A DNA stretch of 64,000 bases. Origin: an uncultured virus (IMG/VR IMGVR_UViG_3300027374_000252) (Duplodnaviria; Heunggongvirae; Uroviricota; Caudoviricetes). Positions 2,771 to 22,193 of the stretch are shown here, piece by piece; position 1 is the stretch's first letter; every line of letters starts with the position of its first letter. Made by a program: the position numbers and the translations under genes. The notes below the pieces were generated by a model that was given only the letters and a program-made list of their open reading frames with translations, searched no databases and was not told the DNA's origin. Where the stretch lies: the IMG/VR virus record IMGVR_UViG_3300027374_000252; one strand, given 5' to 3'.

Positions 2771-2786
2771 ATCACAGCGTATAACA

Positions 2787-4448: not shown

Positions 4449-7400
4449 ATGCCAATATATAGAGTAAACGGTAAGAAATATGATATTCCGAAGGATAAGG
4501 TTTCGAAATTTGAGAGTGTGTATCCGGATGCTACAGTTGATATATATGACAATGCCTCGGGAAAGGGATATGAGATTCCTGTGTCAAAGGTAGGGAGGTT
4601 CAAGAATCGGTTTCCCAAGTGGTCGTATGAAAAGGGTGCGGTGGCTTCTTATACGGATGTGACTGATGTTTCGGAGGCGGGAGAGGTCGGTTCTTCTGTG
4701 GAGCAACAGGAAGCATGGAAGCCGACCCCAATGCAGAAAGCGTTTATGATGGGGTCTGTTCAATCGTCACTGAACAGTTTCAAGGCGCACACGGATGCTT
4801 CAATGGAGCGATTGAAAAACACCTCTGAGTATTACAATCGTGGCGGAGCTTTCTCCGGGAATAAGCCTGTCAAGGGAGATATGCGCTACAACGAAGACGC
4901 CGGGAAGATTGAGCAGACATATCTCACTCCGACAGGAACAGCCACAGCCGACAAGTTTGCCGCAGAGCGTGAAACGAGAGCCTACAACGATTATGTGGAC
5001 AACATGACCGTATCCGGACAACTTCGCCGTGCAGGTAGAGACCTGTCAGACCTCCTCCGTAAAAGGGAGGAACGAGTGAAAGCCATTCATGACAAATGCG
5101 CAGAAGACCAAAAAAATAATAAAGCACCTCTTGCCGCTGTCCTTGGCGCACAGACCTATGTGCCATCCATTCAGTCAGACCCGGAATATCGGGCATTGAC
5201 CGCTGCTATCCATCAAGCAGAGAAGCGTGTCCAAACTCTTCAGCACGAAAGCGACCGACAGGACGGCAAAGATGTTGGCTTTTGGAGGGGCTTCGGTGAA
5301 GTTGTCGGTGATATAAAGACATGGGACTTCGGTTATAGCGGATTGATGGATGCTATGACAATGCTTGATGCCACTTCTAAACCGTCACCCAACCGTCCGG
5401 CAAAGACCGATGCACAGAAAGAGGCTGAGCAAATCATGTTGGAGCAGACATACGAGGCTCAACAGGCACAGTCAGCATACGGACAAAATGATTCGTTTTG
5501 GAACCGGGCCGGTGTCATGACGGGCGAAATGTTGCCATTCATGCTTGACTTTGCCATCATGGGCGGTGCAAAAGGTGGCACATCTATGGTCACAAGAAAT
5601 CTTGATGCCGTCCTGTTGCGTAGTCTCCACAAAGCAGCTCCAAAGATTGCAAGAAACAAGGCTGTGCAGTGGACAACAAAGGCACTGGGAGCAATGCCCG
5701 AAGATTTGCTCTACCGTGCTCCACTCATGACCAATACAGTGCAGGGCATGAAGACAGCATCTGACATCATTGACCGCAAACTTGGAGATGTTGTCATCCG
5801 TGACGATGGTACATACGACTTCTCCAATGACAAGACTTGGGGAAGCGCAGTATGGCAGGGTGAAGCCAATGCAATTATTGAGAACTATTCGGAAATGTTT
5901 GGCACACACCTTGAGGGTGTGCTGTCGTTAAAGACCGTCGGGAAACTCGCTGATACATTCGGAGCAAAGCGTCTCAGCGGAATACTCACCAAAGCAAGCA
6001 ACAGCGAGCTTGCAGGTATTGCCGGAACAATGCAGAAGCACCTCAATCAACTTGGAGTATCTGACTATTTCGGTGAGGTAGGTGAAGAATATTACGGTCA
6101 GTTGTGGCGCACGATGCTCAATCTTGATGATGCCTACAAACAGAATCCGGATGGATCACGGACAAATCTTTTTCTTGACGGACAGTTCCACGGTGATATT
6201 TGGGGAGGCATGGCTCTTTCCATGGGACTTATGGGTGCAGGAAAGTATTCCATATCTGCGGCCGCATATGGTTCAATGAAACACCGTGTGAACAAAACCG
6301 ATACACGAGCATCCGAAATTTTCACTCCAGAAATATGGAATGGTTGGAGAGAACGCATTGACGGCACAACCAATGACAAAATCGGCGAAATGGCAGAGGC
6401 TATTGTCGCAGACCCGACATTGACCGATGAACAGAGAACTGCCGCCATGAACTATATGGAAGCCTCTCTGAATCTTCGTGGCTTCAACCTCGCAAGCGTG
6501 GCCCGTCAGCGTGGAGGTGAAATGTCGGAAGATGAAGCAGCAGCCAATGAGAGTTACATGGACGGCTATACCGCTTCCACTCCGCAGGAAATGAACGATG
6601 CAAAAAAGATGCTTGACTTACAGCGAGGGCGTCTTGCATCGGCATTGTCTGAAGATTTAGTACAGGACTTCGACAACGACCCCATAGGAGCATTGTCCGT
6701 CACTCATGACCCGGAACTCAGACACATCGCATCTGATTATGTCAATGCGAAGGCGGTATATGACGGCATGATACAGCGGGTGCGTGACGATGTGGATGGA
6801 CGTATCGCCCAAAGCAATGCCATGATTGACAGTCGCATCAACCGGGAGACGGGCATGATACAACCTGCTACTATGAAAGCGGATGACCGCAGGGTGTATA
6901 TTGTCAATGGCACTGTAGCCATGTTTGAGGACGGTACTGGTGTTGATACCAACAATTCAAGCGAGAGCATTATAATCCGTGATGCCGAGACGGGTAAAGT
7001 GGAGTTTGCCGACCCTACGCAGTTTCACAGTGTGGATGAAGCGGTTGATGCCGAGACCGAAAAAGAAGCTGCACGCAAACAAATCATTGATGAAATAGCC
7101 GTTGCCGCCGCCAACAATATAGACGGTGTTCTTTCTTTCACGCCCGGCGAGTCATATTCTGTCCTTGACATTGACGGCAATCCGGAAGATATTGCCATAC
7201 TCGGACAACCCACTGACGAGAACGGTATTCCCCTTGACGGCTATGTCGACATTCAGTATCCGGACGGAACGATTCAGTCCGTAGCCACGTCAGACCTACA
7301 ACAGTGGGTTGATGCCGCCAACACTCGGAGAGTAGAGCAGTTTGACAATGAACGGCAAGCGCAGAGAGCCGCTGAGGACGAAGCGGTACGGCAGGCAGAC

Positions 7401-10400
7401 CAATCGGGACTGAGCAATCCTAACCGCCGGACTGACCTCATGCCCGATGATTATAAAACGCCGTATGATAACCGTCCTGTCAGAGCCACACGCTATATCG
7501 AAAGCGAGAATGGCACAGGCGGCACGTTGTATCAAGACGAGAATGGGAACGATGCAGTTGTCATTGCCGCTATTGATGACAATAACTATGTCGGCTACTT
7601 CCGTGAGTATGACGAGCAGGGAAATCCAACCAACCGATGGAGTGCCAAATTTCAAAACGGCAGTGGCATAAGGGAGAATCACCGAGATATGATGCTGACT
7701 GCTCAGGAACTCCTTCCTGCCGGACATGAACTGACAGAACACACAAGTGTTTCGACTGACGGACTGCGTAACCTCGCCAATCAGTTGAAGCATGGATATG
7801 AGCTGCAATATGATGAACAGGGCAACATCGTCACAACCGAAGTTGCCGTGAACATGATGGCAAGAGACAACACGCTTGGTCTTTCCGATTATGAGCCGGG
7901 AAGCATTGACCCTGCAAGGGTATCAAGTGAAGAATATAGGGAAGCTGCATCACGTCTTATCCCCTACATGGAGGCACTCGGTCTTTCCAAATTTAATATC
8001 CATTGGGAAGACGGTACGATGTATGTTGATCATCCTATACTGAAAAGGGCGGATACACCTCAGCAGGAAGTTCAACCTGTCGTTACCGAAAATGCAGAAA
8101 CCGTTCCCAATTCTGACGAAAACACCGAAATTCCCACGGAAAATCGTGATTTAGCCTCGGAAACCGTTCCCAAAACTGAAAATTCTGTAGAAAACGTACA
8201 ACAGACAGCCGATGACGGTTTCATTCCCATTGACCCGGCATTGATTAACAGCAGGACTGACGAAAACGGGAATATCATTTGGGATGAACCTCAACAGGAG
8301 CAGAGCCGGAGCGAGGAACATAAGCAGTCTGCATTGTCCCGTGTGCCACTCAATGAGAAGGGTAAACCGGATTTCGGAGCAGTTGACGCAGATACTGCAT
8401 GGGATGCCATTGTTGAGAAAACCTCCAATGAAGCAATGGCACAGTCTTTCGCTGAAAATATGGTAGCCGCATCAGAAGCGGAACTGAAGAAAGCAGAGAA
8501 AGTAAAGACCCAACCCACGACAGACCTTGACGAGTTTATTGCCGCCGACAGTGAACGCATAGCCAATATAGACCGTGCCAGGACTGCACTCGACCATTGG
8601 AAAAAGGTTGCAGGGACTAAACAGCGCAGACAGGCAGAGGCGGATGCCGTCCGAAGTGCAGAAATGCGCAAACGTGCAGAGGAGGCTCGTATCAAGGCTG
8701 AGCAGGAACGTGAGGAGCGTGAGGAAGCAGAGCGTTGGGAGGCTGAGAAGCGCGGGCTTGATAAGAGACTGCGTGATACTGCGGAATCGGTGCGCCATGT
8801 GCCGGAGGCGGTCGAGGTGCTTAAGGATATGAATCCACAGTCGATTGACGAGGTTGCGTCGTGGCTTCTTTCGCGTCATAAGGTGATTTGGAGCGACACT
8901 AAGAGGGGTGGTGTCAGAATTAAATATGGCGTTGCGAGTCATACCGGTTTTGGAGAGGGAGAGCGCAGGAAGTTGTTCGGGCTATTTGCTTCGGCAGAAA
9001 AGGGTGGCATCTCTCTTGATCGGCTTTCGGAGGATTTGTTTAAGGAGGCATGTGATGTGTTTGGCGTGGCGTATGACAACAAGTCGGCACGAGATGCACT
9101 GATTGAACGTATCGGTGAGGCGCGTACGATGGGAGATATACTCAACTATATAGCCAATAATCGTATTGCCCGTGCCACACGTGTTGCGGCTGAGTTTGAT
9201 GCTTATGAGGCCGAGCAGCGGGAAGAGCATTATCAGGAGGCATATCATATGGGCTATGATGAGTATGAGGCTTATGAGGGGCAGATGCTTGTCGAGATGG
9301 AAAATGCTTTCCGGAATTTTGATGAACAGGAATTTTATGGTAATATTGCGGATGAATTAGTAAATCAGCAAAGATATGGACTTAGAAGCAATGAAGAGGC
9401 TGTCGGCGAAAGAGAAGTCGCAGCTGATGACGGAGGCGTTGAAGTTTTGTCTGGAACGAAATCTGGTGAAGCCGGAGGAGCGCCGAGCAATGTTGTCGGA
9501 CAAGAGGTATCAGGCGGAGCTGGCTATGCGTTGCGTGATACGTCGGGAGGCTTACCTGAAGGCGCATCCCGAGGGTTAGATGGCCCTGGTGGGGGTGTTG
9601 TAGATGCGGGCGTCAGGATTTCGGCGGATGATTTGGCGAAGCTCGGAGAGCGTGACCGGCGCGATGTAGAGGATTATCTGTCGAGGCGGTGGAGCTGCGA
9701 TGTGGGTGTTATTGGCGATGTCCGTGATATTGAGTCGCTACCGGAGAATTCGAGAGCGGATATTGTTGATGCTTACGAAGATGGTGAAACATGGGCTATA
9801 TATAGTCGCGGTGATAAAAAAATCTATATCTTTGCGGGGAAGAATGGTGATGAATCGTTGAGCGGAGTGCTTCTGCATGAGAATGTGCATGCGGTGGTTG
9901 ATATGCTTGGTGATGATTGCCGTGAGTTTCTGGAGGCGTATGCGGGTCAGATTAGCGCTCTGCCTTATACAAATGGTGTCTTCGGAGGAATGTATGCCGA
10001 TATTCAGGATTTATATGCTGAGGATAAGGCTGAGGAGGAATTTCTGGCATACTCTCTTCAATATGTAGAACTGTATAATAAGGTATTAACTAAGATAAAG
10101 AAATCGCTTGATGAACCGACACTCCGTTATCTTGAAGATAAGATTTTAAGTAAATTATATGAGCCAGCAGGAAGAACCGATAAAGGTGAAGCAGTACACG
10201 ACAATTCACGCGTTCAATGGTCGCGCGTACAAGAAGATAATGGATCGCGTGAAAGAGAACCACATGAGATATCAGGAGGAGCATCCGGAGAGCGCAGAGA
10301 GTCCGGATGGGAATCAGAAGCCGGAGGACAACCAGTAGGTGAACGATATGAGTCAACAGAAGAATACCCCGGAAGAGTTGCCGAAAGTGAAGCAGTACAA

Positions 10401-13400
10401 GAATATACACGCGCTCAATGGCCGCGCGTACAAGAAACTGTCGTCGATACTAAGGGAGGCCTTCAGGGAGGAGAGCGCAGAGAGCGCAGAGAACTCGGAG
10501 AAGGAGGAGAGCGCGGAGATGAAGGAATAGCTGAGGAGGCTGAGATTGCATCGGAAGAGGATGCGCTTAACTCTCGCATTGAGGTTAAGGATGATGACTG
10601 GACTGAGGAAGGTGGTTACACTCCGACCCTCAAACGCACTGTTGTCATTGACGGCATTCATAATGTGACACAGGTCGATGCTCCTAATGACAAGGGGGAT
10701 TATACAGGCTCAATATTTGAGTATGACGGCAAGGCATTCGGAGACCTCCGAGAGGTAATATCTTATATAGACAGCTCACGACCTGCTACGATAGGAGAAC
10801 AGGTAGCCGAAGCGGAAGCTGAGGTGAACACCACTCCGACCGATGGGCAGAAGAAAGCCGGGAATTACAAGAAGGGTCATGTGCAAGTGGGAACATTTGA
10901 CGTGACCATCGAGAATCCGAAAGGCTCAAAGCGCAGCGGCACAGACCCGGACGGCAAGAAATGGGAAACCACCATGACCCACACCTACGGCTATATCCTT
11001 GGCACTAAAGGTGTGGACGGTGATCATATTGACGTTTATATTTCTTCCGACATAGACGGATGGAACGGCAGGAAGGTGTTTGTCGTTGACCAATATAATC
11101 CCGATGGCTCATTCGATGAGCATAAGGTTATGCTTGGCTTCAATGACAAAGTGGATGCCATACAAGCCTATCTATCCAACTATGAGGATGGATGGGAGAA
11201 AGGACGCAGGCTCGTTTTCTCTACCGTCAGCATAGAGGACTTTGAGAAATGGATTGAATCCTCACACCGCAAGCAGAAGCCTTTCAAAGAATACAAGAGC
11301 GTACACATCGAAGAATCACATGAGGGAGGCAAGGACGAACTTCACGATGAGGTAAGGCAGTGGCTCGGCAAGAAAGGATTAGAGCCGGATGAAGCATCAC
11401 GAAGCGCAGTCATGCGCTATTTCAGGATCGGCTACAACCGGGCAGGAAAAATCCTCAACGCCATAGCTGAGGAGAATGCCGCCAACCAACATGAGGAGGC
11501 AACCCCGGCACAGGAACAAACCACCTCAACCTCAACAGAAGGCTACACCATAGTGTCAAAGCCCTACACCAACAAGCAGGGTAAGACGCTCGACACCCAT
11601 CTTGTAACCTTTGACCGGGACTTCTCAAAAGAGGAGCAGAAAAGAATCCGCGCCATGGCAAAGGAGAAGAAGGGTTGGCCAGACCGCGAGACAGGAGGAT
11701 ACATGCTGCGCAGCCGAGAGGACGCGGAGGAATTTGCCGCTTCCGTCATGAACATCAATGCGACTTCTACCGCTGACGCTCCTGTCAGCCTAAGCGACAT
11801 TGAATCGGCAATAAAACCCGCAGAAACGGAAATTTCCTCTTCACCTGCCGATAAACCTGCTGACGCAGAGGCTAAGCCGGAGAAGAAGCCGAGCAAGTGG
11901 GTGGACGAGGAAGACGCTGAGGAATTCGAGCGACTGAGAAACATTCTCCGCAACGGACTCGGACAGCTCAACATGGGTTTCCCTCCGGAGCTACTCTATG
12001 CTGGAGGGAAGATGAGTTACCTCATGATGAAACACGGCGTGAGGAAGTTTGCCGAGTATGCCACCGCTATGATAGAGGAACTCGGTGATGCGATACGGCC
12101 TCATCTGAAATCCCTATACAACTTCACTCGATCTACAGAAGAAGTCATGGAGAGCGAATGGGCAGACGAGCTTACACCATTTGACGAGGTAATGAAGTTT
12201 GATACCGCCAACTTCGGGAAACCCAATGTCGATGCTATGGCTACCGCTGAGAATGTTGTCGCAGAAGAAGCGAGTCAACAGCATCTGGAAGATGCCGTCA
12301 ACACCATCAAGGACTCCATAAGGCAGAATCCGGACGGAAGCACCTCACAGACAATTAACGAAGGTGGAACGGAGATTGAAGTAACAGAGGGTGATTTCAT
12401 CCCCGGTGTCTATCCTCCAATAGACGATAAGCCTACAAAGCCGGGAAAGAAGAAGCCATCCAAGTCCAAACCTGCCGAGCAGAAGCCGACCACCGGACAG
12501 CTCGACCTCTTCGAGGAGGAAGAGGAGCAGATAATCAATGACATAATCGATGATACCACTCCACCCGAACCGAAGCCGGAGGCAGAACTTTCGGGAGACT
12601 CGGCAGACTACCAGGAGCGCACAAGACAGGAGCGAGATTTGGTAGATGATATTGTTATTGAAATCATGAAGCGCACAGACATGAGGGAGCGAGGCGATGA
12701 AAAGGTTACACTCACTATGCGCGACATCAGGGGAATGCTTGAAAACTACTCTCTTCTCGCGGACATATCCGCAACCGACTTGCAGGAACTTGTAGAGAGA
12801 GCCATGACCATACTGACGCGCACGGCTGCAAAGACCTGTCAACTTGACCCGCGCAAGGGATATGACCGAGTAGTGGCTTACTATAATATGCAGCCAAGCC
12901 TCAATGCAAGAGACAGCGAAAGGTTGATAAAACAGCAGTACAGCACCCCTACGCCTTTCGGCTACGTCATGGGTCAGTTTGTCAATGCCAAGAATGATGC
13001 AAAGAGCATTCTTGAACCGAGCGCAGGGAACGGAGCATTGACAATCATGTTCAATCCCGCCACCGTCCATGTGAACGACATAGACGAGCGTAGGCTTGAA
13101 AACCTCCGTACACTTGGCTACGGCACAGTTACGGCACAGAACGGACTCCTGCCATTCGAGGGGGAGAAAGTTGACGGTGTTCTTACCAATCCACCTTTCG
13201 GGAGCGTGACCGAAAAGGTATATGACGGAGTATTCAAGATTTCCTCCCTTGAGGGACAGATGGCTATAAACGCCCTCGACTCCATGAAAGACGGAGGACG
13301 AGCCGCCATAATCATAGGTGGCAACACAAGTTATCGCACAAACGGGTCGATGAATCCGAAAGATGCGGCATTTTTTGGTTATCTTTACAGCCACTATAAT

Positions 13401-16400
13401 GTATCTGACGTTATCAATATAAGCGGCAAGGCACTCTATGCGCGAAACGGCACAGGCTATGACGTGCGTATGATATTGATAAACGGACGGAAGACAGGGG
13501 AATTTTCGCGTGTCTATCCTCCTGTAAAGTCGAAAGCCCGCGCTGAACAGGTAACAACATTCGATGAACTTTACAAACGAGTACAAGATGATATACAGCA
13601 AGTTTTCCAAATGGGGAATAAGCCTGCCGATGTGCAGCCCGAAGCAGAGTCAACCGCTGACGGAGGAACGAGTACGCCTGTTCGTAGCGGAGGCAATAAC
13701 CCGAACAAAGGAGCAAGGGAACGACCCGACACAACAGGCTATGGAAGCGGAAGTGCATCCGGGTCCAATATCGAGCAACCTTCATCCGGAAATGGAGGAA
13801 GCAGACCTGTTGGAGTGGATAATGGAGACGCAGGAAATGCAGGAGGCACTGACAATGTTCAGAGACCTCAATCCTCAGCGTCCGGAAGCAATGGAAGTGG
13901 AAGCCCACAAAATGACGGAGGAAGAAGTGGAGGCAACGGACGTGACGCAGCTTCTTCTCGACCTAACAGCAACGGAGAGCGACTGGCAGTAAAGCCTGAC
14001 CTTACCACAGAGAAAGTCCCATATCCCAACCAAAGCGACAACGGCTTCACATTGCTGTCGGTCGTACCTGCGGCACAGGCAGAGGTATTGCAGAGAAGCC
14101 TTGCCGAGATTGGAGATGTTGACCAATTCCTTGTAGATGAACTTGGCTATTCAAGCAAGGAGGAACTTTACAGTTACCTTGCAGCCGAGCAGATAGACAG
14201 TGTAGCACTCGCCATACATCAGATGAATAAAGGGAACGCCTTTATCATCGGCGATATGACAGGTGTAGGCAAAGGGAGACAGGGAGCAGCCCTAATCCGT
14301 TATGGAGTAAGGCAAGGCAGATGCCCGATTTACTTCACACAAAAACCAACTCTTTTCACAGATAACTACCGAGACCTTGCGGATATCGGGAGCAGTGAGC
14401 TCCGACCGTTCATCATTGCTACGGATGATAAGGAGCATACGCCATATATCAGAGATTTCAACGGTAATGTGATTCATAAACTTCCTACAAAGCTGGAAAG
14501 GGCAATGGTCTTCAAGTATATCATGAAGAACGGCCGATTACCGAAAGGATACGACTATGTGATAACCACATACAGCCAGATCCAGAATGGTAATCTTGAT
14601 TATGAACCCAAGGAAGATGGATGGGTGACCGTCCCTAAAAAATACGGTAAGGGAAAGAGCGAGACAGCTAATGACCGGAAAGGTCAGGAAAGAAGAAATG
14701 TACTTGCGCGACTGGCTATGGGGACTGCTCCGGGTCAGGGTAATATTGTCATACTTGACGAGAGTCATACTGTCGGTGGTGACAGCGGAAGCGGACGTTA
14801 CATGCAGATGCTTACCTCTAATGCGTATGGTGTAACGTTTATGTCTGCTACCTTTGCAAAGAGAGCTGGCAACATGCCCATCTATGCACAGCGCACGGCA
14901 ATATCGGAAGCCGGAGTGAACGCCAACGAACTTATTGAGGCTATAGCCAAAGGGGGCGTGACCTTGCAGGAAATCATGTCAAAGCAGTTGGTGGAGTCCG
15001 GTCAGATGATACGCAGGGAGCGCAGTTTTGAGGGTGTCACCATTGATTGGCTCAGCGTAGAGGAAGAGACGGACCGCAAGCAGAGAGAGCAGTTTAACGA
15101 GGTAGCCAACATCTTCAACAGTATCCGGAATTTCCAAAATGACTTCATCAAGCCTATCATAGACGGCATGAATGAAGATGCTGCCGAGACGGGAGGCACC
15201 GTAGGACAGACACAAGGCACTAAGGATATGGGCGTAAGGAATACTCCTTTTGCCTCCAAGATGTATAATCTCGTCAATCAGTTACTCTTCGCCCTCAAAG
15301 TAGATGCAGTGGCAGACCGGGTAATAGAAAATCTCAGCAACGGATTCAAGCCTGTAATCAGCTTCACCAATACAATGGAGGGATTTCTTGCCTCTGCACC
15401 GAAAGGTGTAGCCATGGACGAAGTGCCAAACTTCTCTCTTACTTTGATGAGGGCACTCGATGGAGTTATGCGATTTACCGAAAATGATGCAGACCAGAAC
15501 AGTGAGGGAGGTCAAATTACAGTGGGGCAGCTATCGCCGGAGGGACAGGCTGCATACAATGCCATCAAGGGAAAAATCATGAACCTCAGCGCAGACCTGC
15601 CTATCTCTCCTATGGATGCCATACGCATGAAGATAGAGGAGGCAGGATACACAGTAGCCGAAATAACAGGACGTACCACACAGCTGAACCGCACTGAAGA
15701 TGGACGCTACATTGTAGAGGGCAGGAAAGACCGCGACAAGAAAGCCGCCATGCGCGACTTCAATGCCGGGAAGCTCGATGTACTCATGATAAATAAATCC
15801 GGTTCTACAGGAATCTCCCTTCACGCCTCAAGCAAGTTTGAGGATCAGCGTCAGCGTGTCATGGTATTCGCTCAATTCCAAAGCGACATCAACGATGAGG
15901 TTCAGATGAGAGGACGTATCGACCGAAGCGGACAGGTAGTCAGAGGTCGATATGAATACATCATGTCCACGATTCCGGCAGAGCAGAGAATCCAAATGAT
16001 GTTTAAGGCTAAGTTGAAAAGTCTCGACGCCAACACCACATCATCGCAGAAATCGAAGTTTAATGAAATGGAGATTGTTGATTACCTCAACAAGTACGGT
16101 GATGAAGTGGTATGGGAATACATGAAAGAGCATCCGGAACTTTCAGACCGTCTTGGAGACCCTCTTAAAATGCTACAGGATAAAGACGAGGACGGAGCAG
16201 CCCGCACATCTGAAAAAGAGGACTCCTCCCAAAAGTCAGACTGTGCAGGAGAAATCTCCCGCTATCTTGCCTTCCTTTCTGTGGAGGAACAGGACGAAAT
16301 CTTCAAAGAGATTACAGAGGCGTATAAAGTGAAGATACAGCTTCTTGACGACGCAGGAGAGAATGACCTTGAAATCACCACAATGCCATTGAGAGCCGAG

Positions 16401-19400
16401 ACCAAGAGCAAACAAATATGGCATAATGGAGAGAACCCCGGCAGCGGCAACGCTTTCGCTGACAACACTTATGTTGAAGAAGTGGAAGTTGACGTGCTTA
16501 AAAAGCCTATGAAGCGCACAGAGATAGAGGATATGACCCGTAAACTCATGGGCGATAAGATAACCACCGCTGCCGAGTACGACCAAACGCGCTATGGCAT
16601 GAAGGATGGTGAACTTAATTGGGGCCGTTATGCCGACAAGAAGATTGAAGAAGTCAATAATTTCTTCAGTGCCAAAGCTGATGATGCAGTCGCAAAGATG
16701 AAGGAAACCGGAGAATCGCGAGTTTCCAAAGCCAGGGAGAAATCCGTCAAGGACGCTATCAAGGCACGCGCCAAAGGGGAAAACACATTCAGCGACCAAG
16801 AGATAGAAGCTCTCGCAGATGTTGTAGCCAAGGAAGCGCAGGACAAAGAGGAAATGAAGCAGTATAGGCGGCGTGAGGAAATAAACAACGTCCGCGACCA
16901 AATCACGCATCTTCTCGGCAGACTGAGAGCCGGACACATCTATGTAGTTCCGCAGGACTTGAAACAGGCTACCGCCGATATGTTCACTCAGACTTTCGGC
17001 ACATTCGTTGGCTTCAAGTTCAATAAGAGTTACACCCTTGGTTCATCGACCGCCATATTCGCCACACTTGACGGAAGAAGAAAGGTAGAACTTGCCCTTA
17101 ACGATAAGGCCATAGAAACTATTATACGATGCACTGATACAGCACTCCGATATTCGCCAAAGGAGATCAATGCTATCTCAATGGATAATTGGGACAGTAA
17201 GGTTCCCACCAAAACACGTCAGACACGCCATATCATCACAGGCAATCTACTTCAAGCACTCGTTGACACTGAAAAGGGAGAAAAGACTAAGGGCAACCTT
17301 ATTAGTTTCTCCACCAATGACGGCAATACCCGGCAGGGCATTCTCATGAGTGAAAACTTCAAGCCTACCGACCTCCGCAGCAGTGTACCTTTGCGCTCAC
17401 GTCTGAAACAGATACAGGACGGCATAACAGTTGTCAGTGAGAATGGAGACGTGCAGATTGAGAGAGTTGATTTTGATTGGAAGCACCGGGGCGAGTATGA
17501 GCTTAAAGTACCGAAGTCAAAGCAACGCGGAGGAATCTACTCCATGCACACGGATTTATTGAAGCTCATTGACGGTCATAATTTCAACAGCAAGGGCAAC
17601 TATATGATAGGATATATCCTGCCGGAAAATCTTGCCAAAGTTGTTGATATGCTCAGCCGTGCGCCTTTCAATCTGACAGTGTTGGAGGAATCAAAGTTGA
17701 CAGAAACCACCGATTCTTCTCAGCGCAATGTTGAAGACGATAGTGACCTCAGATTTCGCATTCGTGAAGAGGAGCCTCCAAAGCAGACAGGTATAGGATA
17801 TGAACCTCAGAAACGTCAAACCGGAGCAATAACAGATGAGCAGATTAATGAACTCAACTCACAGTTTGCCCAAAGAGAGCGTGACGGATATGGCGCATAC
17901 TCGGATGCTGAGGTTTCTATGGAGAATGACCCGTGGAGCAAGGCTTGGGGTGAAAGCATCCGGACGAAACGACAGCAGAAACAATTTGCTGAAAGAGAGC
18001 GTAAACGTATGCGAGACCGTGCCAAATCTCTATCTTCCGTTCTTGGCATAGACATCGAAGTCATTGAAGACGCTTCTTCCCTAAAAGGCAAGAAGCAGAG
18101 AGCCAAAGGATGGTATGATACCAAGACCGGGAAAATCACTGTTGTTGTCGGCAATCATAATTCAGCGGCAGACATGGAGGCTACCATACTCCATGAGGCA
18201 GTCGCACATCATGGTTTGCGTCAGTTGCTTGGCGAACATTTTGACGAATTTCTTGATAAGGTATATGAAGCCGCCGACAATGGCATCAAGGAGCAGATAG
18301 ACCTGTTGGCATCCCGTAACGGTTGGAACAGGCGAGTTGCTACTGAGGAATATCTTGCCGGACTTGCCGAGGAGACAGAGTTTGACCGGGCAGAGGAACG
18401 TGTCAGTGGATGGTTTGACAAAATCAAGCGATTCTTCATTGATATGCTTTTCAAGGCAGGGTTCAAGCACATAAAACCCGGAAGCATCGGAGACAATGAA
18501 CTTCGGTATATCCTTTGGCGTAGTTATCAGAACTTGGCTAATCCCGGTCGTTACCGTGCCTTTGAATGGGAAGCGGAGGATGTGGCCATGCAGTATAAGC
18601 TGCAAGTGGGAGAATACGGACATAGAGAAGATGCTACGGAGAGAAAAGTGGCGGAGGCAGGAGAACTGTATGAGCTGAACGAACGGTTTAACAGGGAACT
18701 TGAAATGCAGATTGACGGGACCTTACCAGCAGGGCATGTTTATAATATGGGTATGCCGAGCAAGGAGTTGCTGTCAACCGGTATAGCTCGTCTGCCAATA
18801 AGGTTGTCAGCATCAGTGCTGAATGTGAAATCGAATCTTGAGAGGCATGCTTATGATTTGTCGTCAGTAAGAAATCTTGTGAATGCCATCCAAAAGCCTT
18901 GGGCTATATTTTCATATGGCGACAAGGGGAAAGCACAGAATCTGATAATAGGAATAGAGGATGGAGGGCGTCAATTTCTCGTTGGAATCTCCATAAATCC
19001 GACAGTAAAGGGGGTGACATTGGAGATAAACAGCATCAGGAATGTGTTCCCTAAGAATAATCATGAGTGGATAAACTGGATAAATGAAGGGAAACTGCTT
19101 CGGGTAGATGGTAAAAAAGAAATCCAAGCCATCATAGCCAAGCTCCGAATGAATCCCGTGGCCTTTGACTATGTTGACTTGGATAATGCCACAAAGATAG
19201 TTGAAAATTTTGAGAATCCAACTATCGGAGAGCAGAATAATAACAACGGAGGAGAAGATACTGTTCTATTCCGTGACGGGGACTTCACGCCAAGAGACCG
19301 GAAACTGGCGGCTGATGTATATGAGAAGATGCTGAGCCGTGGGAGCTGGCAATTTCGTGAAGCAACGCAGGATTCTATGCTTGGACTCAAAACCTTATAT

Positions 19401-22193
19401 GAATCAATTCTTGGCAGCAATACCCGTATTGAGAATGTTGCCGGGTATGAGAACGCATACCTGTATGAGAACCGGATGAGCAGTGCCAACAATGGAGAAC
19501 AGCATCAGTATTTCAGTCGTTTCATGAAGCCGTTGCTTGATAGCATCCATAAACTTTGCGGAAGCAAGGAGCTTGACCGTCGTATCCTTACGGACTACAT
19601 GATGGCGAAGCATGGTCTGGAACGTAATGAGTATATGCGCAATGAAGCTGCCGCCAACGGAGAAGATACCGAGCGTGATTTCGCCGGACTCTGTGGTCTT
19701 ACCGGAGAGGACGATTGGCAGGTAGCCGAGACCGTTGCCCAGCAGATGGTGGATGATTATGAATCAGACCATGATACTGCCGAGTTGTGGGATAATGTGA
19801 AGAAAGCCACAAATGCCACTCTTGAAAAAATTTATCTCAGCGGTCTAATCAGCGAGGATACCTACAACAAGGTTCTTGGTATGTATGATTTCTATATTCC
19901 TCTTCGCGGATGGGACGAGACTACAAGCGATGAGGTCTATGGCTATCTTACAAGTAAAGATGGTCCACTCATGGGAAGTGTGTTCAAAACAGCAGAGGGA
20001 CGTGAGAGCAAAGCCGATGATCCAATCGCAACCATTGCGATGATGGCAGATGACGCAATCCGTCAAGGTAACCGCAACATCATGAAACAGCGGTTCCTCA
20101 ACTTCGTGCATGGTAATCCGAGTGACCTCGTTAGCGTCAATGAGATGTGGCTACAGCACAATGATGTCACAAACGAATGGGAGCCTGTATTTGCAGACCT
20201 GCAACCGGACATGACCCACGCTGAGGTTGAGAGCGAGATAGCCAAGTTTGAGGCAAAGATGGAAGCACTGAGGACAGCAGAACCTGACAAGTATAAAAAG
20301 GGAGGTGACGCAAGAAACATCCCTTACAAGGTCGTGCGTGGCAACCTCAACGAACATCAAGTATTGGTAAAGCGTAACGGGCGTACTTATGTCATAACCA
20401 TAAACGGCAATCCAAGGGCGGCGCAGGCATTGAACGGACTTACCAACCCCAACGTGGAGATGGGCGGTGTCATAGGAAATATTCTTAAACTCGGAGAATA
20501 TGTTAACCGTCATTTGAGTGCTTTCTATACTACCCGTAACCCGGATTTCGTTGTCAGCAACTTCATGCGAGATATGCTTTACTCCAACTGCATGACATGG
20601 GTCAAGGAGAATCCTCGATATGCCCTTCGCTTCCATAAAAACTTTGGCAAGGTCAATCCTCTTACACTCCGTAGGCTACTGTCAAAATGGGAGAATGATA
20701 ATCTCAGCGACAGTAATTACCTTGAAAAGATGTTCAAGGAATTTATGTTGAATGGAGGAGAAACAGGCTATACCTCAGTCAAAGACATCGAGGGACACAA
20801 GCGAACCATTGCTTCTGAACTGAAGAAACAAGGTAGCACCGGACGCAAGGCATGGAACGCATTAGGTATGCAACTTGATTTGCTGAATCGAAGTGCCGAA
20901 AACTGCGCACGTTTCGCAGCTTTCCTTACCTCTCGTGAGATGGGTCGAACACTTGACCGAAGCATCTATGACGCAAAAGAAGTGAGTGTGAATTTCAACA
21001 AGAAAGGTAGCGGTGGCAAATTTGTAAATGCAACCGGACAGAAATTCTTAGGCAAATTAGGCTCGTATCTCGGAGGCGGCGGACGAATAGCCTTCGTCTT
21101 TTGGAAGGCAGGTATTCAAGGCATGACCAATTTCGGACGTGCAGGGAAGCGCAATCCGGGCAAAGCCATTGGGGGTACCACTGCATTATTCACACTCGGC
21201 TATGTCATTCCCCTTCTTGCTCAAATGCTTGGCGGTGGTGACGGTGACGATGATGATAAGAACGCATATTACAATCTTCCGGAATATGTGCGCCGCAGTA
21301 ACATATGCTTCAAAGCAGGGGAACAATGGATAACTATTCCTCTTCCTATCGAATATCGTGCCATATATGGTATGGGAGAACTTGCCTGTGGAGTAATCAG
21401 TGGGAACGAGCGATACAGTAATTCGGAACTGACTCGTCAGATGGCATCACAAATCAGCCAAGTAATGCCTCTTGATATGCTTGAGGGTGGAGGCGGCATA
21501 TCTCCGTTCATACCAAGTGCATTCAAGCCTATGACCGAAGCCTATATCTTGAACAAAGGCTGGACAGGACTTCCGGTGTATAAGGATACCCCTTATAACA
21601 AGAATGATCCAGAATGGACGAAAGCATATCAGAGCGCAGACCAACATCTTGTGGCTTTCACACGATGGCTCAATGAAACAAGTGGAGGCAATGACTATAA
21701 AAAAGGGACGATAGACATCAATCCGGCTAAACTTGAATATCTTCTTTCGGGAACATTCGGCGGTGCTGTCAGCACAACCGGGAAACTAAAGAAGATGGGC
21801 GAAACAGCTTTAGGTACGCGAGAGTTTGAATGGCGCAATATGCTTCTCGCCAACCGTGTTATAAAATCCGGAGACGAACGCACGGCAAACCGTAAACTCC
21901 AAAACGAGTATTACAAATACTTGACAGAGTATGAGGAGACCAACCGTCTGCGCAAGAAATACGAAAATGCAGCAGACGATGGAATACTTGGTTACGCTGA
22001 AAGAGTAGATTTTCTTTACAACTCTCCCGAATATCTACGCTTTGAAATATTTGAAAAGTATAAGCCGGATATAGATGCAATTCGAGAGGAAATAAAGGAG
22101 GAAACCAATCCCGAAGCAAAAAAAGAGTTGCAGGAAGAACTCTTTTCAACCATGCGTGAACTTGTAGATGAACTTCACGATGTCGGTAAGTAA
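4449..22193 (+). CDS. Giant polyvalent (DarB-like) virion protein, 5914 aa: zincin peptidases, iPPase-like, FtsK-gamma-like wHTH, N6-adenine MTase, strawberry-notch/SNF2 helicase, BECR-type nuclease-like, LPD38-like C-terminus
   Basis: HENVH 9876-9890; IENPKGSKRSG..YGYI..DGDHID ~10910-11030; LEPSAGNG ~13011 and NPPF ~13188; GDMTGVGKGRQ ~14250, DESH ~14757, SATF; HEAVAH ~18192; YYNLPEYVRR..IPLP ~21270-21350. Confidence 0.9.
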   Translation: MPIYRVNGKKYDIPKDKVSKFESVYPDATVDIYDNASGKGYEIPVSKVGRFKNRFPKWSYEKGAVASYTDVTDVSEAGEVGSSVEQQEAWKPTPMQKAFMMGSVQSSLNSFKAHTDASMERLKNTSEYYNRGGAFSGNKPVKGDMRYNEDAGKIEQTYLTPTGTATADKFAAERETRAYNDYVDNMTVSGQLRRAGRDLSDLLRKREERVKAIHDKCAEDQKNNKAPLAAVLGAQTYVPSIQSDPEYRALTAAIHQAEKRVQTLQHESDRQDGKDVGFWRGFGEVVGDIKTWDFGYSGLMDAMTMLDATSKPSPNRPAKTDAQKEAEQIMLEQTYEAQQAQSAYGQNDSFWNRAGVMTGEMLPFMLDFAIMGGAKGGTSMVTRNLDAVLLRSLHKAAPKIARNKAVQWTTKALGAMPEDLLYRAPLMTNTVQGMKTASDIIDRKLGDVVIRDDGTYDFSNDKTWGSAVWQGEANAIIENYSEMFGTHLEGVLSLKTVGKLADTFGAKRLSGILTKASNSELAGIAGTMQKHLNQLGVSDYFGEVGEEYYGQLWRTMLNLDDAYKQNPDGSRTNLFLDGQFHGDIWGGMALSMGLMGAGKYSISAAAYGSMKHRVNKTDTRASEIFTPEIWNGWRERIDGTTNDKIGEMAEAIVADPTLTDEQRTAAMNYMEASLNLRGFNLASVARQRGGEMSEDEAAANESYMDGYTASTPQEMNDAKKMLDLQRGRLASALSEDLVQDFDNDPIGALSVTHDPELRHIASDYVNAKAVYDGMIQRVRDDVDGRIAQSNAMIDSRINRETGMIQPATMKADDRRVYIVNGTVAMFEDGTGVDTNNSSESIIIRDAETGKVEFADPTQFHSVDEAVDAETEKEAARKQIIDEIAVAAANNIDGVLSFTPGESYSVLDIDGNPEDIAILGQPTDENGIPLDGYVDIQYPDGTIQSVATSDLQQWVDAANTRRVEQFDNERQAQRAAEDEAVRQADQSGLSNPNRRTDLMPDDYKTPYDNRPVRATRYIESENGTGGTLYQDENGNDAVVIAAIDDNNYVGYFREYDEQGNPTNRWSAKFQNGSGIRENHRDMMLTAQELLPAGHELTEHTSVSTDGLRNLANQLKHGYELQYDEQGNIVTTEVAVNMMARDNTLGLSDYEPGSIDPARVSSEEYREAASRLIPYMEALGLSKFNIHWEDGTMYVDHPILKRADTPQQEVQPVVTENAETVPNSDENTEIPTENRDLASETVPKTENSVENVQQTADDGFIPIDPALINSRTDENGNIIWDEPQQEQSRSEEHKQSALSRVPLNEKGKPDFGAVDADTAWDAIVEKTSNEAMAQSFAENMVAASEAELKKAEKVKTQPTTDLDEFIAADSERIANIDRARTALDHWKKVAGTKQRRQAEADAVRSAEMRKRAEEARIKAEQEREEREEAERWEAEKRGLDKRLRDTAESVRHVPEAVEVLKDMNPQSIDEVASWLLSRHKVIWSDTKRGGVRIKYGVASHTGFGEGERRKLFGLFASAEKGGISLDRLSEDLFKEACDVFGVAYDNKSARDALIERIGEARTMGDILNYIANNRIARATRVAAEFDAYEAEQREEHYQEAYHMGYDEYEAYEGQMLVEMENAFRNFDEQEFYGNIADELVNQQRYGLRSNEEAVGEREVAADDGGVEVLSGTKSGEAGGAPSNVVGQEVSGGAGYALRDTSGGLPEGASRGLDGPGGGVVDAGVRISADDLAKLGERDRRDVEDYLSRRWSCDVGVIGDVRDIESLPENSRADIVDAYEDGETWAIYSRGDKKIYIFAGKNGDESLSGVLLHENVHAVVDMLGDDCREFLEAYAGQISALPYTNGVFGGMYADIQDLYAEDKAEEEFLAYSLQYVELYNKVLTKIKKSLDEPTLRYLEDKILSKLYEPAGRTDKGEAVHDNSRVQWSRVQEDNGSREREPHEISGGASGERRESGWESEAGGQPVGERYESTEEYPGRVAESEAVQEYTRAQWPRVQETVVDTKGGLQGGERRERRELGEGGERGDEGIAEEAEIASEEDALNSRIEVKDDDWTEEGGYTPTLKRTVVIDGIHNVTQVDAPNDKGDYTGSIFEYDGKAFGDLREVISYIDSSRPATIGEQVAEAEAEVNTTPTDGQKKAGNYKKGHVQVGTFDVTIENPKGSKRSGTDPDGKKWETTMTHTYGYILGTKGVDGDHIDVYISSDIDGWNGRKVFVVDQYNPDGSFDEHKVMLGFNDKVDAIQAYLSNYEDGWEKGRRLVFSTVSIEDFEKWIESSHRKQKPFKEYKSVHIEESHEGGKDELHDEVRQWLGKKGLEPDEASRSAVMRYFRIGYNRAGKILNAIAEENAANQHEEATPAQEQTTSTSTEGYTIVSKPYTNKQGKTLDTHLVTFDRDFSKEEQKRIRAMAKEKKGWPDRETGGYMLRSREDAEEFAASVMNINATSTADAPVSLSDIESAIKPAETEISSSPADKPADAEAKPEKKPSKWVDEEDAEEFERLRNILRNGLGQLNMGFPPELLYAGGKMSYLMMKHGVRKFAEYATAMIEELGDAIRPHLKSLYNFTRSTEEVMESEWADELTPFDEVMKFDTANFGKPNVDAMATAENVVAEEASQQHLEDAVNTIKDSIRQNPDGSTSQTINEGGTEIEVTEGDFIPGVYPPIDDKPTKPGKKKPSKSKPAEQKPTTGQLDLFEEEEEQIINDIIDDTTPPEPKPEAELSGDSADYQERTRQERDLVDDIVIEIMKRTDMRERGDEKVTLTMRDIRGMLENYSLLADISATDLQELVERAMTILTRTAAKTCQLDPRKGYDRVVAYYNMQPSLNARDSERLIKQQYSTPTPFGYVMGQFVNAKNDAKSILEPSAGNGALTIMFNPATVHVNDIDERRLENLRTLGYGTVTAQNGLLPFEGEKVDGVLTNPPFGSVTEKVYDGVFKISSLEGQMAINALDSMKDGGRAAIIIGGNTSYRTNGSMNPKDAAFFGYLYSHYNVSDVINISGKALYARNGTGYDVRMILINGRKTGEFSRVYPPVKSKARAEQVTTFDELYKRVQDDIQQVFQMGNKPADVQPEAESTADGGTSTPVRSGGNNPNKGARERPDTTGYGSGSASGSNIEQPSSGNGGSRPVGVDNGDAGNAGGTDNVQRPQSSASGSNGSGSPQNDGGRSGGNGRDAASSRPNSNGERLAVKPDLTTEKVPYPNQSDNGFTLLSVVPAAQAEVLQRSLAEIGDVDQFLVDELGYSSKEELYSYLAAEQIDSVALAIHQMNKGNAFIIGDMTGVGKGRQGAALIRYGVRQGRCPIYFTQKPTLFTDNYRDLADIGSSELRPFIIATDDKEHTPYIRDFNGNVIHKLPTKLERAMVFKYIMKNGRLPKGYDYVITTYSQIQNGNLDYEPKEDGWVTVPKKYGKGKSETANDRKGQERRNVLARLAMGTAPGQGNIVILDESHTVGGDSGSGRYMQMLTSNAYGVTFMSATFAKRAGNMPIYAQRTAISEAGVNANELIEAIAKGGVTLQEIMSKQLVESGQMIRRERSFEGVTIDWLSVEEETDRKQREQFNEVANIFNSIRNFQNDFIKPIIDGMNEDAAETGGTVGQTQGTKDMGVRNTPFASKMYNLVNQLLFALKVDAVADRVIENLSNGFKPVISFTNTMEGFLASAPKGVAMDEVPNFSLTLMRALDGVMRFTENDADQNSEGGQITVGQLSPEGQAAYNAIKGKIMNLSADLPISPMDAIRMKIEEAGYTVAEITGRTTQLNRTEDGRYIVEGRKDRDKKAAMRDFNAGKLDVLMINKSGSTGISLHASSKFEDQRQRVMVFAQFQSDINDEVQMRGRIDRSGQVVRGRYEYIMSTIPAEQRIQMMFKAKLKSLDANTTSSQKSKFNEMEIVDYLNKYGDEVVWEYMKEHPELSDRLGDPLKMLQDKDEDGAARTSEKEDSSQKSDCAGEISRYLAFLSVEEQDEIFKEITEAYKVKIQLLDDAGENDLEITTMPLRAETKSKQIWHNGENPGSGNAFADNTYVEEVEVDVLKKPMKRTEIEDMTRKLMGDKITTAAEYDQTRYGMKDGELNWGRYADKKIEEVNNFFSAKADDAVAKMKETGESRVSKAREKSVKDAIKARAKGENTFSDQEIEALADVVAKEAQDKEEMKQYRRREEINNVRDQITHLLGRLRAGHIYVVPQDLKQATADMFTQTFGTFVGFKFNKSYTLGSSTAIFATLDGRRKVELALNDKAIETIIRCTDTALRYSPKEINAISMDNWDSKVPTKTRQTRHIITGNLLQALVDTEKGEKTKGNLISFSTNDGNTRQGILMSENFKPTDLRSSVPLRSRLKQIQDGITVVSENGDVQIERVDFDWKHRGEYELKVPKSKQRGGIYSMHTDLLKLIDGHNFNSKGNYMIGYILPENLAKVVDMLSRAPFNLTVLEESKLTETTDSSQRNVEDDSDLRFRIREEEPPKQTGIGYEPQKRQTGAITDEQINELNSQFAQRERDGYGAYSDAEVSMENDPWSKAWGESIRTKRQQKQFAERERKRMRDRAKSLSSVLGIDIEVIEDASSLKGKKQRAKGWYDTKTGKITVVVGNHNSAADMEATILHEAVAHHGLRQLLGEHFDEFLDKVYEAADNGIKEQIDLLASRNGWNRRVATEEYLAGLAEETEFDRAEERVSGWFDKIKRFFIDMLFKAGFKHIKPGSIGDNELRYILWRSYQNLANPGRYRAFEWEAEDVAMQYKLQVGEYGHREDATERKVAEAGELYELNERFNRELEMQIDGTLPAGHVYNMGMPSKELLSTGIARLPIRLSASVLNVKSNLERHAYDLSSVRNLVNAIQKPWAIFSYGDKGKAQNLIIGIEDGGRQFLVGISINPTVKGVTLEINSIRNVFPKNNHEWINWINEGKLLRVDGKKEIQAIIAKLRMNPVAFDYVDLDNATKIVENFENPTIGEQNNNNGGEDTVLFRDGDFTPRDRKLAADVYEKMLSRGSWQFREATQDSMLGLKTLYESILGSNTRIENVAGYENAYLYENRMSSANNGEQHQYFSRFMKPLLDSIHKLCGSKELDRRILTDYMMAKHGLERNEYMRNEAAANGEDTERDFAGLCGLTGEDDWQVAETVAQQMVDDYESDHDTAELWDNVKKATNATLEKIYLSGLISEDTYNKVLGMYDFYIPLRGWDETTSDEVYGYLTSKDGPLMGSVFKTAEGRESKADDPIATIAMMADDAIRQGNRNIMKQRFLNFVHGNPSDLVSVNEMWLQHNDVTNEWEPVFADLQPDMTHAEVESEIAKFEAKMEALRTAEPDKYKKGGDARNIPYKVVRGNLNEHQVLVKRNGRTYVITINGNPRAAQALNGLTNPNVEMGGVIGNILKLGEYVNRHLSAFYTTRNPDFVVSNFMRDMLYSNCMTWVKENPRYALRFHKNFGKVNPLTLRRLLSKWENDNLSDSNYLEKMFKEFMLNGGETGYTSVKDIEGHKRTIASELKKQGSTGRKAWNALGMQLDLLNRSAENCARFAAFLTSREMGRTLDRSIYDAKEVSVNFNKKGSGGKFVNATGQKFLGKLGSYLGGGGRIAFVFWKAGIQGMTNFGRAGKRNPGKAIGGTTALFTLGYVIPLLAQMLGGGDGDDDDKNAYYNLPEYVRRSNICFKAGEQWITIPLPIEYRAIYGMGELACGVISGNERYSNSELTRQMASQISQVMPLDMLEGGGGISPFIPSAFKPMTEAYILNKGWTGLPVYKDTPYNKNDPEWTKAYQSADQHLVAFTRWLNETSGGNDYKKGTIDINPAKLEYLLSGTFGGAVSTTGKLKKMGETALGTREFEWRNMLLANRVIKSGDERTANRKLQNEYYKYLTEYEETNRLRKKYENAADDGILGYAERVDFLYNSPEYLRFEIFEKYKPDIDAIREEIKEETNPEAKKELQEELFSTMRELVDELHDVGK
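9376..9579 (+). CDS. Candidate nested (+1 frame) 67-aa helical protein inside the giant gene
   Basis: MDLEAMKRLSAKEKSQLMTEALKFCLERNLV...; A/T-rich leader; main frame here is a low-complexity G/E/S linker. Confidence 0.55.
   Translation: MDLEAMKRLSAKEKSQLMTEALKFCLERNLVKPEERRAMLSDKRYQAELAMRCVIRREAYLKAHPEG
10159..10338 (+). CDS. Candidate nested (+1 frame) 59-aa protein, paralogue A (absent from ORF track)
   Basis: MSQQEEPIKVKQYTTIHAFNGRAYKKIMDRVKENHMRYQEEHPESAESPDGNQKPEDNQ*; leader TTTTAAGTAAATTAT-ATG. Confidence 0.65.
   Translation: MSQQEEPIKVKQYTTIHAFNGRAYKKIMDRVKENHMRYQEEHPESAESPDGNQKPEDNQ
10348..10530 (+). CDS. Candidate nested (+1 frame) 60-aa protein, paralogue B
   Basis: MSQQKNTPEELPKVKQYKNIHALNGRAYKKL...; starts 9 nt after the stop of paralogue A; synonymous differences in this frame. 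Confidence 0.65.
   Translation: MSQQKNTPEELPKVKQYKNIHALNGRAYKKLSSILREAFREESAESAENSEKEESAEMKE
13564..13992 (+). CDS. Candidate nested (+1 frame) acidic protein between MTase and helicase domains (alternative start 13588)
   Basis: Open frame spans the N/G/S-rich linker of the main frame; amphipathic acidic helices (MEEADLLEWIMETQEMQEALTMFRDL). Confidence 0.6.
   Translation: MNFTNEYKMIYSKFSKWGISLPMCSPKQSQPLTEERVRLFVAEAITRTKEQGNDPTQQAMEAEVHPGPISSNLHPEMEEADLLEWIMETQEMQEALTMFRDLNPQRPEAMEVEAHKMTEEEVEATDVTQLLLDLTATESDWQ

Follow-up and report, generated by a model that had tools for sequence, protein, structure and literature searches.

The window analyzed here, a stretch of 64,000 nucleotides, comes from a prophage of the Muribaculaceae, that is, from a gut phage whose host is a culturable commensal of the mouse gut. 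Its forward strand carries, at 4449..22193, a giant gene of 5,914 codons which, according to the list of open reading frames (ORFs) and to its Pfam and PHROG matches, encodes a polyvalent virion protein (LPD38/DarB-like). The Pfam domains in its frame (from here on, the main frame) are InPase, AAA_34/Helicase_C_4, MuF_C, and LPD38, and the PHROG match is to DarB-like antirestriction, such that enzymatic, anti-defense, and virion-associated domains are found together, as in other polyvalent proteins. The gene adjoins that of the portal protein, and its neighborhood also includes an integrase, a T7 gp14-like protein, a terminase, and an SU10-type capsid protein. Stop-codon recoding was rejected, as code 11 leaves the large genes open.

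The region of interest starts at the end of a main-frame domain at 9615..10157 (+), which by its HExxH motif (HENVH, 9876-9890) and a downstream third-ligand Glu (10038-10040) is a zincin-like metallopeptidase, with predicted activity. No Pfam model matched this domain. Its residues H88, E89, H92, and E142 are invariant in all 12 aligned homologues, and its AF2 model has a pLDDT of 92.8. In Foldseek, PPEP-1/Zmp1 and M34 peptidases match best. The domain resembles these M34-type gluzincins, which have a lethal-factor-like fold, in the HExxH and the downstream Glu, but the structural match is weak (E-values of 0.02-0.1, TM 0.4-0.49, 13-20% identity). The next recognized domain in the main frame is the InPase at 10845..11258 (+; Pfam PF18823, E-value 8.9e-53, residues 2133-2270), and what lies between the two is a linker.

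Directly 3′ of the zincin domain, positions 10150-10530 are a 201-nt tandem duplication within the giant gene. At the DNA level the repeat is 66 nt long, with 80% identity at a spacing of 201, and the 50-nt consensus of its core has exactly two matches in the window, compared with none in 100 shuffles. Each unit holds an ORF in the +1 frame of the giant gene, with its own start and stop, in the layout of an embedded gene. Repeat unit 1 (10150..10338, +) holds ORF1, from the ATG at 10159 to a TAG at 10336-10338 (59 aa), with an in-frame TAA just upstream at 10147-10149. Repeat unit 2 (10339..10530, +) holds ORF2, from a GTG at 10339 or an ATG at 10348 to a TAG at 10528-10530 (63 or 60 aa); this ATG is 9 nt past the stop of ORF1. 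The two ORFs follow one plan: MSQQ, then a basic core, KVKQYxxIHAxNGRAYKK, then an acidic tail, then the TAG stop. The core, 19 codons in the +1 frame, is found in the repeat comparison at 10183..10239 (+) for copy 1 and 10384..10440 (+) for copy 2. It is about 82% identical between the copies, and the remainder of the units can barely be aligned, which argues that the core is constrained by something other than the main-frame protein. The indels between copies are of 12 and 9 nt; as these and the 201-nt unit are all multiples of 3, the pattern fits copies that duplicated and diverged within the giant ORF. In ORF2 the acidic tail is encoded by indel-prone 9-nt repeats (GAGAGCGCA-like, 10470..10519, +), which in the main frame read as ERRE repeats and in which relatives show 9-nt indels. 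For ORF2, AF2 predicts a lone helix with low confidence (pLDDT 63).

Much of this had been proposed in advance from the letters alone, and the reading was accurate: the positions of both ORFs, their peptide sequences, the four codon pairs that differ synonymously between the copies (AAG/AAA twice, ATT/ATA, and GGT/GGC), and the differing main-frame residues at those four sites are all as claimed. So is the placement immediately after the peptidase, the ATG of ORF1 overlapping the last conserved residues (K-L-Y) of the zincin domain. A programmed frameshift into the +1 frame can be discarded, given the TAA 9 nt upstream of the ORF1 ATG, the TAG between the units, and the lack of a slippery site by eye.

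Is an open +1 frame evidence of a gene? We have to consider that the whole pattern could be a by-product, with neutral drift in a disordered linker, a codon phase that looks organized by chance, and a core kept similar by gene conversion. We regard this explanation as possible though doubtful. When the main frame is recoded synonymously, a +1 run of at least 59 codons persists in 92% of the trials. The linker is without hydrophobic codons (13 of its 124 codons have T at position 2, compared with 1383 of 5914 overall), and because of that the openness of the +1 frame is no evidence for a gene. The stop-to-stop lengths of 62-63 codons are ordinary for the giant gene, in which the longest reach 145, 86, and 85 codons. 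By codon-usage score the +1 frame is at least as good as the main frame here, at one of only three such places in 17.7 kb, and this advantage of the +1 frame is common to all purine-rich linkers; both openness and codon usage are what composition predicts. As for the starts, the contexts of the two ORFs rank at percentiles 91 and 95 among the 486 internal ATGs, and the stretch before the ATG at 10159 is 90% A+T. A further candidate +1 ORF of 67 aa appears in the ORF list at 9376..9579 (+), in the linker upstream of the zincin domain, with a start context in the 98th percentile of the same ATGs. A homologue search for it, including Pfam and PHROGs, was empty; relative to the related genome G002 it has four differences, three of them synonymous in the +1 frame and none in the main frame.

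A different kind of evidence is the way in which the two copies have diverged. We compared their ungapped homologous blocks (10150-10169 with 10339-10358, and 10170-10241 with 10371-10442), a total of 92 nt with 23 differences. In the +1 frame, 9 of the 29 codons have synonymous changes only and 7 encode another residue. Of the 30 main-frame codons, none is synonymously changed and 16 are altered. The +2 frame has 3 synonymous changes and 12 replacements; for the best antisense frame the counts are 6 and 10, and it contains 3 stops. We rejected both as coding frames, since they score below the +1 frame and contain stops. Uncorrected for the region having been picked by eye beforehand, the probability of at least 9 synonymous changes in the +1 frame is 0/5000 when differences are relocated uniformly, 0.0009 when relocation preserves their spectrum (0.02 for any frame), and 0.0002 under a null of selection for the main-frame linker composition. 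The main frame itself, with zero synonymous changes where about 4.4 are expected, has probabilities of 0.007-0.048 across nulls. These values over the full blocks count against a chance by-product. Taken alone, the 19-codon core yields a weak result (P = 0.07 in the +1 frame, 0.22 when all three frames are considered), and the raw differences by codon phase are just 6/5/12; the by-product explanation can point to both. Gene conversion, on the other hand, does not generate a three-base periodicity.

Synonymous differences between the copies are thus frequent in the +1 frame and absent from the main frame. This codon-phase divergence suggests, without proving, that the +1 frame is under purifying selection. 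The original prediction of selection on the nested frame is supported in part: the divergence of the copies favors it, and the polymorphisms described next favor it weakly, while the sample is small and was chosen post hoc.

Recent DNA differences among relatives are few, 9 nucleotides in 6 events, 3 of them synonymous in the +1 frame. (Over the giant gene, a comparison with G002 gives 610 differences; 431 fall at third codon positions, and 403 leave the main-frame residue unchanged.) Within the core of copy 2, the variable sites 10386 and 10389 once more leave the +1 residues unchanged, yet the main-frame protein has S>G and E>K there, which counts against a by-product; likewise the change at 10452 is synonymous in +1 and replaces a residue in the main frame. 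The ATG and open frame of both ORFs are intact in the two other haplotypes that span both (G002/L002-L004, and G001, which is identical there), and the partial contig X17, which runs from 10195 onward and has the ORF1 start outside it, adds no stop. More in keeping with a by-product, one haplotype group has copy-1-like letters in copy 2, suggesting conversion, and the motif is not invariant, since copy 2 has Met in place of the Gly of NGRAY in 9 of the 23 close relatives (P0016-P0024), and also in P0056. The +1 tails vary freely among relatives (R>G, SA>ES, Q>P, S>N). The contigs X15 and X17, from RNA libraries, overlie parts of the region; the two frames are indistinguishable in them, and they do not imply transcription.

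Homologue searches add nothing beyond the immediate relatives, which also agrees with a by-product. Neither Pfam nor PHROGs match the nested ORFs, and a profile search of 1.84 billion representative proteins finds only the ORF itself (P0056), the other matches, P0057 and P0058, being spurious repeat proteins. The ESM Atlas gives no match for the nested peptides, with a language-model recognition of 1536, low in comparison with the 2300 typical of known families, and as noted there is no confident predicted fold. In IMG/VR, a search by peptide, by alignment, and by DNA pattern returns only two near-identical contigs; GenBank phages have nothing past near-identical copies, and metagenome contigs have identical copies only. 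A match among genome contigs, L009 from a Bryobacterales MAG, is irrelevant low-complexity sequence. When all 49 alternative-frame ORFs of the giant gene were compared to PHROGs, none was convincing (one was marginal, with E = 0.0099). The nested ORFs are thus found in relatives about 95-100% identical over the module, and not in diverged ones.

The expectation that the motif travels with this peptidase subtype fails. None of 13 distant homologues of the zincin domain (P0001, P0025-30, P0040, P0041, P0045, and P0050-52) can encode the motif in the +1 frame, and their linkers are unrelated in either frame. The further proposal, that the peptide might be a pseudo-substrate or zinc-ligating inhibitor of the peptidase, is unsupported, and a comparison of profiles reveals no kinship of the peptide with the domain. 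What links the nested ORFs to the neighboring peptidase is adjacency only.

The explanation we favor, tentatively and with slightly less than even confidence, is that 10150-10530 is a dual-coding segment with embedded genes, of putative translation and function. The main frame would provide a disordered, hydrophilic spacer from the zincin domain to the next module, its sequence hardly under selection, while the +1 frame would encode two small paralogous genes in tandem, one of 59 codons and the other of 60-63. A 201-nt in-frame duplication would have produced the copies, and purifying selection would have acted on the +1 frame as they diverged. Ribosomes initiating internally on the mRNA of the giant gene would make the small proteins, ORF1 from the ATG at 10159 and ORF2 from the ATG at 10348, the latter possibly by coupling to the stop of ORF1. 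Of their putative product one can say only that a basic segment precedes an acidic tail.

A second alternative, which we consider unlikely, is that the +1 frame is a fossil. The units would once have been free-standing small genes, or would have belonged to a gene read in the present +1 frame, and would have been swallowed by read-through when modules fused; the old divergence would then have occurred under selection, and today the main-frame spacer alone would matter. This would account at once for an old signal between the copies and for the lack of signs that the frame functions today. Polyvalent genes arise by module shuffling, and the close relatives, 94-100% identical over this module, have very different architectures, of 4,195-6,081 aa. 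The layout of each unit (a stop, 9 nt, an ATG, and so on to the TAG) is also gene-like. But no free-standing homologue exists among the representative proteins searched, and none of 107 alternative-frame segments matches the main frame of 55 proteins (the giant relatives and P0001), which disposes of a compensated frameshift or domain remnant as well. Nor do the nested peptides resemble the zincin domain (hhalign probability 1%). A fossil is also at odds with unit and indel lengths in multiples of 3, and with recent core polymorphisms that are still synonymous in +1.

It is very improbable that the core acts in the main frame, as a cleavage or recognition site of the peptidase, or as an RNA or DNA element, even though zincin-like peptidases have been proposed to process polyvalent proteins (Iyer et al. 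2017, PMC5512222) and both copies contain a small CACGCG(N9)CGCGCG hairpin: the main frame keeps 10 of 19 core residues between the window copies with zero synonymous variation, four predicted folds do no better than shuffles (z from -0.26 to +1.26), and the variable sites recur at every third base, which points to coding.

Returning to embedded genes, a far more specific version would have a young pair, overprinted de novo, whose basic-then-acidic products bind the processing peptidase of a giant ejected phage protein, or the spacer on which it acts, and thereby set when the polyprotein is cleaved. In that case the linker of the target would itself encode, in its second frame, the regulator. 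We give this version, both parts taken together, very little credence.

Among embedded phage genes, Rz1 of phage lambda lies inside Rz in the +1 frame, is experimentally proven, and is widely conserved. The arrangement here is alike in having a small ORF wholly within a larger phage gene at a +1 shift, and in the weak constraint on the host frame in the overlap. It differs from Rz1 in that the candidate ORFs are two tandem paralogues, without homologues or a functional link to the host gene. Overprinted genes, when young, typically have a narrow lineage, as the candidate pair does. Viral overprinting has been reviewed (PMC8227390 and PMC3494269). In the ShiLan insertion, an HNH is reported to be hidden inside a phage methylase gene (PMC11855218). 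The likeness is a host frame that passes without a stop through a segment with a gene in another frame; the difference is that the hidden frame there belongs to a recognizable family, whereas the pair here is an orphan. Without Pfam or PHROG matches, the nested ORFs are not a hidden homing endonuclease of that sort. As for the polyvalent proteins described by Iyer, Burroughs, Anand, de Souza, and Aravind (2017, PMC5512222), the host gene is a typical one (zincin-like MPTase, InPase, MuF_C, LPD38, helicase), and the nested ORFs fall outside the described family; the words "linker," "low-complexity," and "overlapping" have 0 occurrences each in that paper.

If the pair is not real, it serves as a warning that disordered linkers automatically yield long and well-scoring +1 ORFs. 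If it is, then the linkers of polyvalent genes would be birthplaces or hiding places of small genes that are invisible to gene callers, and the tandem pair would be an embedded gene that duplicated with both frames kept. One could then test directly, in the prophage of a culturable mouse-gut commensal, how an overprinted gene is born and first evolves.

Nested in the +1 frame of a giant ORF of 5,914 codons (4449-22193), two short ORFs stand in tandem, ORF1 at 10159-10338 and ORF2 at 10339 (GTG) or 10348 (ATG) to 10530. The original prediction of such a tandem pair holds, and all the sequence letters that it quoted are correct. Both ORFs sit on a 66-nt direct DNA repeat, with 80% identity and a spacing of 201 nt. 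A 50-nt consensus of the core is found in exactly two places in the window, the two repeat copies, and in none of 100 shuffles. Homology between the copies runs from the stop codon that precedes each ATG (TAA GTA AAT TAT ATG vs. TAG GTG AAC GAT ATG), stays strong across MSQQ and the 19 core codons, and weakens in the acidic tails. Among 486 internal ATGs, the two start contexts reach the 91st and 95th percentile, but they fall about 1.4 sd short of the average for 34 presumed real starts; they are compatible with initiation, yet "not compelling".

The divergence between the two copies was evaluated over the homologous stretches that align without gaps (10150-10169 against 10339-10358, 10170-10241 against 10371-10442), which include 23 differences in 92 nt. 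In the main frame, 16 of 30 codons change residue, and none is only synonymous. In the +1 frame, 7 of 29 codons change residue and 9 are only synonymous. Neither of these frames has stops, while the +2 frame (29 codons) has 12 residue changes, 3 synonymous codons and 5 stops, and the best antisense frame (30 codons) 10, 6 and 3. The periodic pattern points to coding in the +1 frame.

How often would that pattern arise by chance in a neutral linker? When the differences are relocated at random, 9 or more synonymous codons in +1 appear in 0 of 5,000 trials. Keeping each from-to base change, the probability is 0.0009 (0.02 for any of three frames); under the same null, 7 or fewer +1 replacements have P = 5e-5 (0.001 for any frame), and zero synonymous codons in the main frame P = 0.0076. 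If mutations are kept only when the main-frame residue is linker-like, the expectation is 2.4 synonymous codons for +1 against 4.4 for the main frame, and P = 0.0002 for 9 or more in +1. Selection acting on the main frame alone is rejected as a model at about 1e-3. Narrower or simpler views of these data are weaker: the 19-codon core of the original prediction gives P = 0.07 (0.22 for any frame), the block reported by the repeat finder P = 0.10, and a plain count of the differences by codon phase 6/5/12. All these values are uncorrected for the choice of the region by eye. Taken together, we regard selection on the nested frame as suggestive, and chance as possible, if on the unlikely side.

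The openness of the +1 frame, on the other hand, is no evidence of coding. Every +1 stop requires a T at main-frame codon position 2, and in this linker T occupies that position in 13 of 124 codons (1,383 of 5,914 in the whole gene). In 5,000 synonymous recodings of the linker, a +1 run of at least 59 codons survives in 92% of trials, and the longest +1 runs of the giant gene (145, 86, 85 and so on) do not include the nested ORFs. Codon usage slightly favors +1 at the nested ORFs (0.27 vs. 0.21 bits per codon). Across 586 windows, such an edge is found elsewhere only near 9369 and at 13659-13869, both low-complexity linkers, and we ascribe it to purine-rich linkers in general.

The relatives available for DNA comparison are few. 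G001 is identical to the window in this region. Within 10150-10530, all that separates G002 from the window is a 4-nt cluster at 10291-10294 that alters residues in both frames, a change at 10316 that is silent in the main frame and gives Q>P in +1, one at 10452 that is silent in +1 and gives K>E in the main frame, and a 9-nt insertion. A contig of run X17 has the same substitutions and, in addition, one at 10267 that alters the residue in both frames, two at 10386 and 10389 that are silent in +1 and give S>G and E>K in the main frame, and the loss of 9 nt at 10497. These six events, 3 synonymous in +1 and 1 in the main frame, lean the same way as the between-copy pattern, with little power. 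As for the indels, 9-nt repeats (GAGAGCGCA-like) at 10470-10519 grow and shrink among relatives (G002 gains 9 nt, an X17 contig lacks 9), and there the main-frame ERR/ERRE unit varies in copy number among protein haplotypes.

At the protein level, copy 1 is unchanged in all 23 close relatives, and copy 2 has three forms. One of these (P0016-P0024, 9 of 23) corresponds to N>T and G>M in +1, so that the glycine of the I-H-A-x-N-G-R-A-Y motif is not invariant, being Met in copy 2 of those nine. A separately called 63-aa protein (P0056) confirms this form, and its tail has two S>N changes that by codon reading are silent in the main frame.

The nested ORFs correspond to residues 1904-2027 of the giant protein, directly after a 181-residue domain (9615-10157) that had been labeled a zincin. 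The label is right: all 12 aligned homologues keep both HExxH and the Glu downstream of it, the fold is predicted with pLDDT 92.8, and the best structural matches, weak ones (E 0.02-0.1, TM 0.4-0.49), are M34 gluzincins. The motif is not a companion of this peptidase subtype, a point that the original prediction had itself set as a check; any inhibition of the peptidase by the nested peptides would be conjectural. Of the 56 stored proteins of at least 600 aa, 14 have two occurrences of a main-frame pattern able to encode the motif in +1, 9 have one and 33 have none, and the 33 include all 13 distant peptidase-domain homologues (26-40% identity), in which the domain ends "...ILxKLYG" and unrelated low-complexity linkers follow. 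In IMG/VR, the motif is on 2 contigs only.

Neither Pfam nor PHROG has a family that matches the nested peptides, and the ESM Atlas has nothing similar either. Their profile, against 1.84 billion representative proteins, reports only P0056 and two repeat proteins, rejected as homologues because their scores are summed weak repeats. Deep conservation is absent among the relatives searched. The units are unlikely to be the fossil of genes that once stood apart: the searches turned up neither a free-standing nor an in-frame relative, and since the duplication unit and indels are multiples of three, the two copies would most simply have diverged while already inside the giant ORF, which favors true dual coding. 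That the core acts as a main-frame or nucleic-acid element is very improbable, RNA structure of the core being unsupported.

Other +1 ORFs are present in the giant gene, and no alternative-frame ORF was assigned to a known family. Upstream of the peptidase domain, the glycine-rich linker contains a 67-aa ORF (9376-9579) with 4 differences from G002 (3 synonymous in +1, 0 in the main frame), a start context at the 98th percentile of the 486 and no homologue, Pfam and PHROG searches included; it may be a third embedded candidate. The longest (13564-13992; 142 aa from ATG, 145 stop-to-stop) has a poor start context (12th percentile), no PHROG match and a block identical in G002; the linker around it is rich in Gly, Ser and Asn, and there the codon-usage score is higher for +1 than for the main frame. 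On the minus strand, a 421-codon antisense ORF (12345-13610) has a translation resembling low-complexity junk.

The host element is a prophage carried by a Muribaculaceae bacterium of the mouse gut, with a tyrosine integrase (357-1508), an SU10-type capsid protein (28892-30334) and a minus-strand terminase (24951-27071); the giant ORF lies between a T7 gp14-like internal virion protein (2721-3284) and a P22-type portal (22333-24315). It has InPase, Strawberry-notch-type helicase, MuF_C and LPD38 domains and a match to a DarB-like antirestriction PHROG, the closest relatives that bear a name are "LPD38 domain-containing protein [Muribaculum intestinale]", and it belongs to the polyvalent proteins as described by Iyer et al. 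2017 (PMC5512222). Against G002, 610 differences in 16,050 aligned bases, 431 at main-frame position 3 and 403 synonymous, indicate strong purifying selection on the main frame overall.

That divergence (L013-L015) is strongly mosaic: zero-difference blocks of at least 2 kb (about 12,850-14,050 and 14,950-16,150) adjoin 14,349-14,949, with 74-89 differences per 300 nt. The peptidase-linker module is 94-100% identical among close relatives whose architectures (4,195-6,081 aa) differ in domain sets, and both observations point to recombination that shuffles modules. One 179,007-nt metagenome contig has the module twice (L010 and L011; 100% identity, 60,881 nt apart), a layout that suggests either a prophage present in two copies or an assembly that is tandem or concatemeric; no such repeat period is found in the window itself.

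That the nested ORFs are real embedded genes is our tentative reading, held at a little short of even confidence, and as overlapping genes they are putative. As candidates, they resemble in layout Rz1 in Rz and other embedded genes of phages, and also the hidden out-of-frame HNH reported for the ShiLan insertion (PMC11855218). If real, the nested pair would be new orphan embedded phage genes.
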